Source: Candidatus Heimdallarchaeota archaeon (GTDB lineage: Archaea > Asgardarchaeota > Heimdallarchaeia > Heimdallarchaeales > Heimdallarchaeaceae). Taken from it: 10,401 nucleotides of DNA. The notes under the pieces were generated by a model that worked only from the letters and a program-made list of their open reading frames with translations, searched no databases and had not been told where the DNA came from. The translations under genes and the position numbers were made by a program. The stretch lies in NCBI GenBank assembly GCA_021399395.1, contig JAAFKJ010000132.1:1-10401 (forward strand), given 5' to 3'. Below, piece by piece: positions 1,402-8,073 of the stretch (position 1 is its first letter; every line of letters starts with the position of its first letter).

Positions 1402-2508
1402 TCATCTAGCTGCTGTTTTGTATTCTGTAATTTTTTCTAGTTTAGACACCGCTTTTAGATCTTCAAATATTGTATTAGCGTGAAGTCCTAACCTGTACAA
1501 ATTTCTTCCTTTACTTCTAAAATCAACCTTTAGCTCATTTGATGCTTTGTTTATCAATTCATCAGTATAGCTTGTATCAACATCGACAGATTTACCAAGT
1601 TCAGAAAAGGGAACAAGACCTGTAGGGATGTCTTCTGTTAAATATCTCATATCAAAAGTTGTAGGAGCTACCAATCCTGAATAGAAAGGATTGTTGTGTA
1701 AAGCATCAAAAAGATTAGTGTCTGGAAGACTATATCTCTCACATAACCACTCTCTAATTGATTGAACTTCTACTCCAAACTTTCTTGCTATATTTCGTCT
1801 TTCACTATCAACTTGTTCCATATAGTCGACTACTTCCCTTGTAGCTCCGTCTTTGTAAAAATCAAATGCTTCTTTCTTCTTTATTCTCTCTTTATTCAAT
1901 AGTGTTATTGTTGGATGGAAAACTGCCCCAATATTTCCTAAACTTGTTTTTAAGAAGTTCTCAACTGCATAGAATTGAGGATAACTTTCATTTAATTTTG
2001 AAATTACATGAGATGTACGATGATTAGGTATAACTGATACAGATACAGATTTCTTGATACCTTTAATATCACTTAATCCAGGTCTTATGGTTCTCGTAGC
2101 ATATATCAATGTATTAGCTTCAGCTACAGTTACATCTGCATCCAAACCACCTTCCAGAAGAGCATTCATAAATTCTAGAATCCCAAAAGTTCTTCCAGGA
2201 TTTAAGACAATTATTTGACCCTTTCTAAGATGAGGTGCTAATGCAGTTGCTATATCATAATGTCCAGTAGCAGTAGTTACTACCATTATTAATTCTGTTC
2301 CATTTATAGCTTCTGAAATATCGGTAGTTACTAGATTTAGCTTCCCTTTTGATTGTACTTCGCCTATTAATTCAATTTCTTTATTGTTCAAAAGTAGACG
2401 GACTCTTTCCAAAGATCTATTGTATAGATTTACTTTATTTCCTTTACTTGCTAGAAATCCTGCAATTGCATGACCTCCACACCCAGCACCAATTATTGCG
2501 ATATTCAC
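1402..2508 (-). CDS. NAD(P)-dependent opine (octopine/nopaline) dehydrogenase family protein
   Basis: 368 aa, GTG start with GGTGA RBS at 2513-2517. Rossmann motif IAIIGAGCGG, VLNPGRT, family His motif NIGAVFHP and C-terminal RYLTEDIPTGL, as in Arthrobacter-type N-(1-carboxyethyl)-norvaline dehydrogenase. Confidence 0.92.
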   Translation of the reverse strand: MNIAIIGAGCGGHAIAGFLASKGNKVNLYNRSLERVRLLLNNKEIELIGEVQSKGKLNLVTTDISEAINGTELIMVVTTATGHYDIATALAPHLRKGQIIVLNPGRTFGILEFMNALLEGGLDADVTVAEANTLIYATRTIRPGLSDIKGIKKSVSVSVIPNHRTSHVISKLNESYPQFYAVENFLKTSLGNIGAVFHPTITLLNKERIKKKEAFDFYKDGATREVVDYMEQVDSERRNIARKFGVEVQSIREWLCERYSLPDTNLFDALHNNPFYSGLVAPTTFDMRYLTEDIPTGLVPFSELGKSVDVDTSYTDELINKASNELKVDFRSKGRNLYRLGLHANTIFEDLKAVSKLEKITEYKTAAR

Positions 2509-2639
2509 TTAATCACCCACTTAGGGTTAAGTGAGTGAGGTGATTCCGTTTTAAACGCTATTTTTCTCGTAACAAAGTGGTGTTGACAAACTAATTTTAA
2601 ATTAAAGTTGCTTTCTCTGTTTTTTGTTTCTTCATACAT
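2505..2639 (-). CDS. Putative 44-aa leader peptide (uORF)
   Basis: MYEETKNRESNFNLKLVCQHHFVTRKIAFKTESPHSLNPKWVIK*. AGGTGA RBS at 2645-2650 lies 5 nt before the ATG. The TGA (2505-2507) overlaps the GTG (2506-2508) of the dehydrogenase gene as GTGA. Absent from the ORF track, probably because of its length. Confidence 0.6.
   Translation of the reverse strand: MYEETKNRESNFNLKLVCQHHFVTRKIAFKTESPHSLNPKWVIK
2513..2538 (-). promoter_or_regulatory. RBS-sequestering hairpin upstream of the opine dehydrogenase gene
   Basis: The mRNA strand reads TCACTCACTTA-ACCC-TAAGTGGGTGA: an 11-bp stem (10 Watson-Crick pairs and one U-G) with a 4-nt loop. The 3' arm contains the GGTGA RBS. The wobble pair forms only on the minus (mRNA) strand. 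Confidence 0.7.
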
Positions 2640-3014
2640 TTTTTTCACCTATTTTCTTTATATCATAGTAATAATGGCTTGTTAAGAATCACTCCTGAAG
2701 TTTCAAGGAGGAAACAGTTCTAAGTAAATAGAGTAGTTTTTGATATTTATATACCAAACAAAGCCAATTTTCGATAGAGATTCTATTATTATAGTTCCCA
2801 ATCGAGCATTATAGTTAGTCAAACAGTTAATAAATCGTATCTTTAAATAGTTATTCTTTTATTAGTCTATATTTGAACAAATACTTATAAGTAGAAATGA
2901 TAAACCATATGTTAAATCCATTATTAATTAAATCAAAGTATAAATAATATATTGTTTTCAATAGTGATTATCATAAAGAAACACTTGAGTTATGAAACTT
3001 TTTTTTCATTTAAT

Positions 3015-3033
3015 CGTAAAAAATCTTTTAAAA
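3015..3033 (+). promoter_or_regulatory. Candidate archaeal BRE/TATA promoter for the MttB-family gene
   Basis: An A-rich run CGTAAAAAA followed by TTTTAAAA (3026-3033), 48 nt before the ATG. The AT-rich context makes chance matches likely. Confidence 0.3.
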
Positions 3034-3081
3034 TGCTAGCTTATTACATACATAATTGACTAATTATCTGAGTTAACAATT

Positions 3082-4530
3082 ATGAGACCTGTTATCAATA
3101 TTCTTGAAGAGGAACTAAAGGAAAAAGTTGTAATTGAAGCAATGGAAATCCTAGAAGAAATTGGGTTTTTTGTTGAAAATAATGAAGCTATTAAGATTCT
3201 ACAAACTGAGGGAATTGATATAGATTTAGAAGAAAAACGTGCAAAACTTCCACGCGATTTAGTTAAGAAAGCATTGAAAAGTGCTCCACCCTCTATTCCG
3301 CTCTTTGATAGAGAAGGTGATTTAGTAACAAAACTTGAGGGAGATAATATTTGCTTCGATCCTGGTTCAGCAGCCTTGAATGTTTTAGATCCAGAAACCA
3401 ATGAAATAAGATCAGCTATTACAAAGGATTTTGTTGATTTCACCAAGGTAGTTGACCAACTTGAACACATTCATGCTCAAAGTACAGCAATAACTTGTTC
3501 AGACGTCCCTGCAGAAATAGGTGATAGATATAGGTTACTGATTACTTTATTATTTTCAAGGAAACCAATTGTAACGGGAACCTTCGCAAAGGAATCATTT
3601 GAAGTTATGAAAGATATGCTTATAGCAGTAAGGGGGAGTGAAGAGGAACTCAGAAGAAAGCCTTTAGCGATATTTGATGCATGTCCTTCACCACCATTGA
3701 AGTGGAGTGATTTAACATGTCAGAGTATTATTGATTGTGCAAAATATGGAATACCTTCAGAATTTGTATCAATGCCTATGACTGGAGCTAATGCACCTGT
3801 TACTATACTTGGAGCAATAGTTCAACATGCTGCAGAAACATTAGCTGGATTAGTAATAACTCAACTTGTATCACCTGGAGCGCCTGTAATATGGGGTGGT
3901 TCGCCTGCAGTTTTTGACATGCGAAAAGCGACAACACCCATGGGTTCTATTGATACAATGATACTAGATTTAGGGTATGTTGAAATCGGTAAATATCTCA
4001 ATCTACCTACTCATGCTTACTTGGGAATGTCAGATACAAAAATACTAGACATGCAATCAGGATTTGAATCCGGTATGGGGGCACTTCTTGCTGGTGTTAA
4101 GGGAGTAAACATGATATCAGGGGCAGGTATGATTGATTTTGAGACAACTCAAAGTATTCAGAAAGTTGTAATAGACAACCAGATGATTGGGATGATTTAC
4201 AAGTTCAATAAAGGGATAATCCAGAGAGATGAGCCAATTGCTAAGAATTTACTAATTGATTTAGAAGAGAAAACGCATCTACTTTCTCATGATCATACTT
4301 TGAAATGGTTCCGAGAAGAGCACTTCATCCCGAACAAAATCATAGATAGGTCCACTAATGAAGAATGGATAAACACAGGAAGAAAAAACGTCAACCAAAG
4401 ATCAAAGGAAGAGGTTGATAAACTCCTGAACAAGTATTCTGGTGTTTCTCTCGAAAAGGATGAAGTTTCTAGTTTGATAGATATAATGAGCTACAAAAAA
4501 ATTGATTTTAGAAAAAGATTGAATCTGTAA
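3082..4530 (+). CDS. mttB: Trimethylamine:corrinoid methyltransferase (MttB) superfamily protein, non-pyrrolysine type
   Basis: 482 aa with family motifs ILEEIG, ALKSAP, CPSPPL, MPMTGANAPVTILGAIVQHAAETLAG, PGAPVIWG, DMRKAT and SDTKILDMQSGFE. There is no in-frame TAG, and Met316 occupies the site equivalent to pyrrolysine. The symbol denotes family membership only; the substrate is unknown. Confidence 0.93.
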   Translation: MRPVINILEEELKEKVVIEAMEILEEIGFFVENNEAIKILQTEGIDIDLEEKRAKLPRDLVKKALKSAPPSIPLFDREGDLVTKLEGDNICFDPGSAALNVLDPETNEIRSAITKDFVDFTKVVDQLEHIHAQSTAITCSDVPAEIGDRYRLLITLLFSRKPIVTGTFAKESFEVMKDMLIAVRGSEEELRRKPLAIFDACPSPPLKWSDLTCQSIIDCAKYGIPSEFVSMPMTGANAPVTILGAIVQHAAETLAGLVITQLVSPGAPVIWGGSPAVFDMRKATTPMGSIDTMILDLGYVEIGKYLNLPTHAYLGMSDTKILDMQSGFESGMGALLAGVKGVNMISGAGMIDFETTQSIQKVVIDNQMIGMIYKFNKGIIQRDEPIAKNLLIDLEEKTHLLSHDHTLKWFREEHFIPNKIIDRSTNEEWINTGRKNVNQRSKEEVDKLLNKYSGVSLEKDEVSSLIDIMSYKKIDFRKRLNL

Positions 4531-7558: not shown

Positions 7559-7629
7559 TAATTTCGCTACTTAAGCAAAGAATCTTTGGAGCTTAAAAAC
7601 TTAATAATCATTAGTATACTATGTGTCTT

Positions 7630-8073
7630 ATGCGTGCGGTCTTTCTTGCAGCTATTATACCAAAAACTGGACCTGAAGTTGTACTTTTACATCCAGAAGA
7701 TTTCCTTTCAAAGGATGAATTTGAAGAACTTTCTCTCAAGTGCATGCCTATGGGAAGCAAAGAAGGAGACTTCTCATCTGTTGTTTTCAATGGTTATCAA
7801 GTTGCAGGATTTCTTACCAGTACTCCACCTATTGATGAACAATTAGACCCTCGAGACACAATAGTATCAATTGGTTTTTTGCTAGATACCTATACCAATC
7901 CTATTCCTTACAGAAATTTACTAATGGATTTTGTAGCTAAGTGTGGGAAAGATGAATCATTCAATCTTTCAACATTAAAAGAGGTAATTCCAGAATTTCT
8001 TAGATTAAAAGATGAAAAGGATATTAGAATTAAAATGAAAGATGAATTGGTTTGTGAGCTTTCTTTGAAATAA
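7630..8073 (+). CDS. Small protein with probable longin/uDENN fold (NPRL2/DENND11-like)
   Basis: Pattern AVFLAAIIPKTGPEVVLLHPEDFLSKDEFE...KCMPMGS...DF...IVSIGFLL...Y matches the strand-GP-strand-P-helix start of uDENN/longin domains. The ORF track starts at 7621; 7630 fits a leaderless transcript from AAAAAC-TTAATAA (7595-7607). The CDS itself is well supported and the fold call moderately so. Confidence 0.65.
   Translation: MRAVFLAAIIPKTGPEVVLLHPEDFLSKDEFEELSLKCMPMGSKEGDFSSVVFNGYQVAGFLTSTPPIDEQLDPRDTIVSIGFLLDTYTNPIPYRNLLMDFVAKCGKDESFNLSTLKEVIPEFLRLKDEKDIRIKMKDELVCELSLK

Follow-up and report, generated by a model that had tools for sequence, protein, structure and literature searches.

The contig JAAFKJ010000132.1, which at its whole length of 10,401 nt is referred to below as the window (10.4 kb), carries on its minus strand a gene for an opine-dehydrogenase-family protein, whose start codon lies inside the end of a much shorter open reading frame (ORF). 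The last codons of this upstream ORF (uORF) hold both the Shine-Dalgarno (SD) sequence of the dehydrogenase gene and a predicted hairpin that hides it. The locus thus raises the question of what such a frame is for: whether it supplies a small protein, serves as a leader peptide on which ribosomes pause in response to a signal, or matters because it is translated, whatever its product. The last of these is favoured here, with moderate confidence. A dedicated ribosome-delivery uORF, which would enforce obligatory translational coupling, is considered the best explanation of the comparative data, and the dehydrogenase is probably made only by ribosomes that have first translated the uORF.

An open frame that ends on the dehydrogenase start

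The uORF comprises 44 codons and a TGA (2639-2505, with the ATG at 2639-2637 and the TGA at 2507-2505; these and all other coordinates of the studied feature refer to the minus strand), and its product is MYEETKNRESNFNLKLVCQHHFVTRKIAFKTESPHSLNPKWVIK. It is preceded by an SD sequence of its own, AGGTGA (2650-2645), which stands 5 nt (AAAAA, 2644-2640) ahead of the ATG. At its other end, the TGA shares two bases with the GTG of the dehydrogenase gene in the overlap GTGA (2508-2505), a spacing of -4. The dehydrogenase SD, GGUGAUU (2517-2511), lies inside the uORF, its GGUG starting at -9. The main ORF (1402-2508, 368 aa) matches PF02317 (E 3.9e-42) and the structure of N-(1-D-carboxyethyl)-L-norvaline dehydrogenase, PDB 1bg6 (E 2.9e-70). 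The next gene of the operon (1-1395) starts 6 nt after the dehydrogenase stop; it codes for a protein with an N-terminal B12-binding domain (PF02310, E 1.6e-11) and is incomplete at the contig edge. An original prediction, made from the letters of the window, had described an AGGTGA 5 nt before a 44-codon ORF, as well as the overlap of the TGA of this ORF with the next GTG, and both are found as described. An automatic ORF listing opens the uORF at GTG 2648 instead of ATG 2639; the ATG is taken as the start because indels of 1-2 nt separate GGTG from ATG in relatives.

The host genome (a metagenome-assembled genome with a completeness of 81.8% and 34% G+C) uses SD-led initiation. Among the 1649 ATG starts of long ORFs, 440 have an SD-like 4-mer at -18 to -4, and a background window gives 114 such cases. 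Ahead of the long-ORF starts, GGTG is most frequent at -9. This modal position is the one occupied by the dehydrogenase GGTG, and the GGTG of the uORF, which starts at -10, adjoins it. No 16S rRNA is present in the metagenome-assembled genome itself; congeners and family members carry an archaeal small-subunit (SSU) rRNA with the 3' end GGAUCACCUCC, and the congener 16S matches the archaeal SSU model, in agreement with the archaeal host that had been predicted.

The comparative set consists of 24 orthologous loci, of which 20 are genome loci (those that include the dehydrogenase gene start) and four are metagenome contigs; the dehydrogenases of the latter are 76-83% identical, and two of the four contigs are near-duplicates of genome loci. 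Dehydrogenase orthologues with 71-90% identity occur in 18 of the 24 other species of the genus and in both species of the sister genus. A metagenome scan with a single protein returned no relative, and a scan with an alignment returned nine loci. In all 24 loci this frame is uninterrupted and terminates on the dehydrogenase start, by way of NTGA in 23 and of TAATG in one. Thus, NTGA is present in all 20 genome loci despite the use of three start codons (GTG in 14, ATG in four and TTG in two), and in three of the four metagenome loci, the fourth having TAATG. The dehydrogenase GGUGA starts at -9 in 21 of the 24 loci and at -13 in the other three.

The openness of the frame is specific to it. 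Over the last 120 nt ahead of the dehydrogenase start, no stop interrupts the uORF frame in 19 of the 20 genome loci, and a single one does so in L015, which has a 28-codon uORF; the other two frames contain 2-8 stops each. When counted from the start homologous to the ATG of the window, the uORF has 28-44 codons in the 20 genome loci; an earlier in-frame ATG would give 62 codons in L011 and 43 in L016 and L020, and across loci the length runs from 24/27 to 57 codons. Indels within the uORF are multiples of three, among them a 12-nt deletion in the hairpin loop, and those in the A-run between the uORF SD and the ATG are of 1-2 nt. The GTGA of the uORF SD is kept in 13 of the 20 genome loci.

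An ORF that is conserved in this manner and has its own SD could code for a functional protein of 4-5 kDa, such as an accessory subunit of the dehydrogenase/B12 pair, in which case the overlap would represent operon coupling for stoichiometry. The order of uORF, dehydrogenase and B12 gene is kept in all orthologous loci that extend far enough, and overlapping pairs often encode subunits of a complex, according to PMC10666635. The evolution of the peptide argues otherwise. Pairwise differences at codon positions 1, 2 and 3 number 507, 555 and 440 in the uORF (codons 2-31, 12 loci), compared with 432, 292 and 1391 in the dehydrogenase (codons 2-100, 11 loci), and the uORF has no third-position excess. 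The ratio of nonsynonymous to synonymous substitution rates (dN/dS) has a median of 0.79 in the uORF (range 0.27-5.04) and of 0.165 in the dehydrogenase (range 0.12-0.24), in each case over 21 pairs of seven loci. With the dehydrogenase as control, neither the codon-position differences nor dN/dS revealed purifying selection on the amino-acid sequence of the uORF. In an alignment of 14 peptides no residue other than M1 and S33 is invariant, and the variable length of the frame likewise speaks against a small protein. The peptide has no match in Pfam or NCBIfam, a word-indexed search of a collection of 5.8 billion proteins returned its own 44-aa entry only, and distant dehydrogenase-B12 pairs (38%/46% identity) occur without such an ORF. 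Coupling to a small accessory protein, which the original prediction had allowed for, is thus not favoured and is considered quite unlikely. The peptide sequence is nearly unconstrained. The frame is therefore under selection to remain open although the residues it encodes are nearly free, a pattern that marks a uORF selected because it is translated.

A predicted hairpin that masks the Shine-Dalgarno sequence

The 11-bp hairpin that had been predicted to bury the GGTGA of the next gene is recovered as the minimum-free-energy (MFE) structure of both a 201-nt and a 51-nt segment; its stem (2538-2513) pairs the GGTGA at 2517-2513. The 51-nt segment folds with -16.3 kcal/mol (z = -3.1), and two of 200 dinucleotide shuffles fold as well. 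In relatives the conserved register is longer and slightly shifted, with AAUCACC (2545-2539) pairing with GGUGAUU (2517-2511) beneath an upper stem. The lower stem of this SD-masking hairpin (2545-2511) is conserved, and its upper stem varies. In the MFE structure of all 24 loci the SD pairs with the UCACC arm, with all five of its bases in 23 and with four of the five in L062, and the 62-nt folds range from -12.5 to -19.8 kcal/mol across loci. The original prediction had named a lack of conservation of the ORF and hairpin as one observation that would speak against it; in the relatives, the frame is open throughout and the SD is fully paired in all loci but one.

The 5' arm, AAUCACCUC (2545-2537), is a mimic of the anti-SD, with 8 nt identical to the 3' tail of the 16S rRNA; in its general form, AAUCACC(U/C)C, it equals the rRNA anti-SD over eight bases. 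Its TCAC is invariant in the 20 genome loci. The Ser codon of the arm is TCA in all 20, as against 29% of genome usage, and the Pro codon is CCC in 15 of 19 loci (genome usage 11%), CCT in four and CCA in none (usage 42%); both CCC and CCT pair with G. Judged by these codon choices, the 5' arm is constrained at the nucleotide level. The C-terminal SP...WVIK of the peptide is encoded by both hairpin arms together with the SD, and the apparent conservation of the C-terminal SP...WVI is thus due to nucleotide-level constraint on the hairpin.

Within the host genome, the pairing probability of the dehydrogenase SD, 0.995, ranks third among 209 candidate starts preceded by GGTGA. A scan of the genome for the pattern TCACC...GGTGA found 29 palindromic places, a few of them ahead of starts. 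A further, crude scan for short ORFs that overlap the starts of long ORFs left 16 after filters, among which this locus is the most stable and the sole one with an evident anti-SD/SD stem.

Obligatory coupling and its alternatives

According to the proposed mechanism, the mRNA would offer an accessible, A-rich initiation region for a uORF of roughly 40 codons, while the dehydrogenase SD, GGUGAU, would be locked against the anti-SD mimic AAUCACC, which lies within the uORF some 25 nt upstream. A dehydrogenase start masked in this way would be closed to free small subunits. A ribosome that translates the uORF would melt the hairpin and terminate at the UGA within the NUGA overlap, whereupon it could be held by the freed SD and reinitiate at the overlapping GUG (termination-reinitiation, TeRe); alternatively, the opened site could admit fresh initiation. 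Owing to such coupling, the output of the first enzyme of the operon would be set by translation of the uORF and not by its own ribosome-binding site (RBS). The arrangement is one from which coupling may be expected: the two ORFs are co-directional and overlap, the downstream SD lies within the upstream ORF at a functional distance, and the initiation region is predicted to pair with a sequence inside the upstream ORF, as in structure-dependent coupling (UTNI). That none of the loci tolerates a stop within its uORF would be an indirect sign that an early end to uORF translation abolishes that of the dehydrogenase. The anatomy, its conservation, the nearly free peptide and the nucleotide-level constraint on the hairpin arm can be read from the aligned sequences. 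We infer that the transcript includes the uORF and that the uORF is translated; the hairpin would then block initiation in vivo, and reinitiation would be used instead of de novo entry. In the original prediction, translation of the operon was proposed to depend on a ribosome either traversing the leader or stalling in it. Dependence of the first enzyme on traversal is very probable, in view of the conserved open frame, the conserved overlap and the conserved masked SD; stalling is not supported, as no arrest motif is conserved at the amino-acid level.

Several observations weigh against obligatory coupling. The loci are kin from two genera, with roughly seven distinct peptide lineages, and counts of loci consequently overstate their independence. 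The strong SD of the uORF is weak or absent in the lineages of L013-L020. No covariation was seen in the hairpin: among 13 alifold pairs and 12 named pairs there is not one in which both partners change, and covariation does not exceed the shuffle control, so that support for the stem consists of invariance and codon choice only. Comparison of related genomes, which the original prediction had proposed, bears out the conserved overlap and neither the conserved peptide nor the compensatory stem changes. A masked SD alone is not rare, since 10% of the 209 candidate starts exceed a pairing probability of 0.9. A TATA-like TTTAAAA, found about 70 nt before the ATG in relatives, is degenerate in the window (TTTCCTCC). 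A conserved motif with a rare ACG codon, UUACGAGAA, is not accounted for by the coupling model. Finally, the model supplies no reason why a constitutive delivery device should have been selected over an open RBS. As regards the alignment itself, the upper stem falls out of register between lineages under MAFFT; 83.8% of cells pair when the structure is in register, compared with 36-57% for slid registers, a control that is biased because the structure was derived from the same sequences.

The absence of covariation and the frequency of masked SDs in crude folding would also be expected if the locus had no function, with an open frame and a stem arising by chance in an AT-rich leader. Composition and the off-frame count (189 stops in 1600 codons) put stops at roughly 0.07-0.12 per codon, and a 40-codon open frame would have a probability of 0.007-0.05 in each independent lineage, whereas it has been retained in about seven divergent ones. 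The fixed codons of the arm likewise argue against chance, and dehydrogenase identities of 74-90% speak against the loci being recent copies of one another. Conservation across the aligned loci is taken as the decisive point in this respect, and an accidental origin is regarded as extremely improbable.

The same anatomy could be put to a different use in a regulated leader peptide, whereby the nascent chain or a slow rare codon would pause or arrest the ribosome in response to a metabolite or a charged tRNA and thus tune the arrivals at the overlap. In its variants, a TnaC-like arrest at the UGA would lower reinitiation, and a pause further upstream would change coupling. Blocked independent initiation pays off only if translation of the uORF carries information, and the stop is always a UGA or UAA on the start. 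In addition, a semi-conserved F-x-T-R/K-K motif lies 19-23 codons ahead of the stop. In the window it reads F-x-T-R-K, at codons 23-26 (nucleotide motif UUACGAGAA, 2572-2564), and its Thr24 is encoded by ACG in 16 of 20 loci, compared with 4.5% of Thr codons genome-wide. Yet the peptide is otherwise nearly neutral, and the metabolite response that had been suggested from its C-terminus and its internal CQHH is not borne out: the C-terminal residues are dictated by the RNA arms, and the position of CQHH is occupied in relatives by VYQNY, VHFHC, VYRFG and others. The third base of the ACG is fixed as well, which indicates a constraint at the RNA level rather than at the amino-acid level.

The geometry of the locus is also unfavourable to regulation by a pause. 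Given the usual size of the ribosome footprint, a ribosome whose A site holds the ACG would leave about 10 nt free before the hairpin, and a pause at this codon would thus unmask nothing. The uORF contains the SD, at 4 nt from the overlap, and in five loci (L004, L005, L006, L008 and L056, which have the 12-nt deletion) only about 6-8 nt separate the SD from the 5' arm. Stalling on that arm would therefore place the SD under the ribosome as well, whereby exposure of the SD in the style of ErmCL or MifM is excluded. Taken together, a regulated leader peptide is considered unlikely. Arrest of the ErmCL/SecM/MifM type is not supported, there being no arrest motif conserved at the amino-acid level and the SD not lying outside the footprint of a stalled ribosome. 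A doubtful extension of this idea has the uORF acting as a true sensor, in which UUACGAGAA/F-x-T-R-K with its fixed ACG would form a programmed pause, or a site responsive to a factor or ligand, that gates the ribosomes reaching the UGA/GUG. In that case a leader peptide would switch the dehydrogenase/B12 operon at the level of translation, a type of switch for which no demonstration in archaea was found in the open-access literature.

The UUACGAGAA block could be a pause site, a binding site for protein or RNA, or could belong to an internal promoter. Were a promoter to lie within the "uORF", at the T/A-rich CTTTATTAC about 60 nt before the dehydrogenase start, a shorter transcript would result. 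The hairpin would then stand at the 5' end of the dehydrogenase mRNA, which it would limit or stabilise, and the frame would be open by coincidence or on account of another transcript. The block TTTAYTACGAG is indeed conserved at the nucleotide level, and the hairpin begins about 25 nt after it, a distance usual between TATA element and transcript start in archaea. Such a promoter would leave unexplained the stop-free frame in 24 of 24 loci, the indels in threes and the overlap that is kept with three start codons. T/A-rich octamers are, moreover, common at 34% G+C, and the shorter transcript is regarded as very improbable. Obligatory coupling through a ribosome-delivery uORF thus continues to be preferred.

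Genomic setting and known systems

The uORF and hairpin have a narrower distribution than the genes that follow them. Nothing comparable was found at the homologues of 30-50% identity (L021, L023-L027, L058, L059, L061 and L063; L060 was left out of this comparison, its gene start being absent), and both uORF and hairpin are absent from the pairs of 38%/46% identity in another family of the same class and from those of 49-50% identity in G+C-rich metagenome contigs. Since these more distant dehydrogenase/B12 pairs lack both elements, the device seems to have arisen within this genus-level lineage. The gene pair as such is kept down to 38%/46% identity in that other family (L021, L023-L026), and its retention points to a functional unit. 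Residues 313-459 of the B12 protein weakly resemble methylaspartate mutase E (E 0.0099, below the cut-off).

The host is probably an Asgard-type archaeon, an assignment made without phylogeny from two full-length actin-family genes (G000:C48:1239-2348 and G000:C37:21058-22170), which score 448 and 437 bits to PF00022; a third actin-family gene of the genome gives a weaker match. In this genus and its sister genus, about 31 nt are inserted into the 16S rRNA immediately ahead of the anti-SD tail, between ...CCUGCGGA and UGGAUCACCUCC (seen at L054:1481-1560 and L053:1471-1560, both on the minus strand; compare L051 and L052). The insertion forms a hairpin whose stems differ between the two genera with pairing kept (GUAUGUA/UACAUAC versus AUACAU/AUGUAU), and it is absent in two complete genomes of another genus in the family.

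Upstream of the operon, and divergent to it, lies a gene of the MttB methyltransferase family (3082-4530, plus strand), an arrangement found in 9 of 20 loci. The gene has no in-frame stop and scores 376.8 bits, against a trimethylamine methyltransferase equivalog cut-off of 525, and for these two reasons it is probably a non-pyrrolysine member of the family with another substrate. Between the uORF and the MttB-family gene, three intergenic blocks (about 2836-2868, which contains AACTATTTAAAGATA, 2796-2825 and 2718-2747) show 94-99% mean pairwise identity in nine loci and are more identical than both the surrounding spacer and the uORF. These blocks, which have no Rfam match, could be promoter or operator elements shared by the divergent genes, or an unrecognised RNA. 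A search of positions 2300-3200 of the window against Rfam 15, on both strands and at a permissive threshold, gave four matches, all far under the gathering scores (best E 0.87). No terminator-like site was found in a consensus scan, whose promoter model, that of bacterial sigma-70, is uninformative for an archaeon. Further along the window, a 150-aa ORF (7621-8073, plus strand) has no Pfam or NCBIfam match.

Among known systems, the leaders ErmCL, SecM, MifM and TnaC also place a short ORF ahead of a gene with its SD in a hairpin, which is open or closed according to where the ribosome stands. Such a leader either stops short of the masked SD or keeps the SD clear of the stalled ribosome, and its arrest sequence is conserved. 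Here, in contrast, the SD is inside the leader, the arms fall within one footprint in five loci, and the peptide is conserved only where the RNA dictates it. A further likeness is found in structure-dependent coupling, in which the downstream initiation region pairs with the upstream ORF and is opened by translation of the latter. In its classical form, the pairing is often long-range and the initiation regions are independent, whereas the present stem is local, at about 35 nt. A local stem that ends 4 nt before the overlap would favour reinitiation by the same ribosome.

Overlapping gene pairs have been shown to be strictly coupled in Haloferax volcanii and Escherichia coli, and it has been proposed that local structures keep de novo initiation from occurring (PMC6728339). 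The TeRe pairs of these organisms (PMC6728339; PMC10666635) resemble the present locus in their -4 (NTGA) overlap, in an SD inside the upstream ORF and in a structure proposed to stop de novo initiation, and one of the two tested organisms is an archaeon. Their upstream partners are ordinary protein genes and the pairs have been tested, whereas here the upstream partner is a nearly unconstrained frame of 24-57 codons, known from sequence, and the arm that masks the SD copies the rRNA anti-SD letter by letter. In a 2025 review (PMC12548453), the "delivery" of a ribosome by a short uORF is among the proposed roles. In Mycobacterium tuberculosis, expression of PPE2 needs translation of a uORF, and the main ORF is reached mainly by termination-reinitiation (PMC11260477). 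The short uORF is thus essential there, as is proposed here; the ppe2 system is bacterial, and its uORF is controlled by a B12 riboswitch, whereas neither a riboswitch nor any other Rfam family was found at the present locus. In Methanosarcina mazei, one report places 10% of the unannotated small ORFs in 5' untranslated regions and calls them potential uORFs (PMC11456600).

Functional archaeal uORFs have so far been mostly candidates from ribosome profiling (Ribo-seq), and no description of an archaeal uORF with an anti-SD hairpin was found in the open-access literature. The locus provides a clean comparative signature of a uORF selected for its translation and not for its product, combined with an anti-SD arm that mimics the rRNA. 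As the lineage is probably Asgard, the locus also makes a testable case of SD-led initiation, a masked RBS and reinitiation among the prokaryotes most closely related to eukaryotes. It offers, in addition, a compact natural coupling element of about 135 nt. No new principle is revealed by it; the control, as read from these comparisons, is of a known kind, to which the present locus would add an archaeal case.

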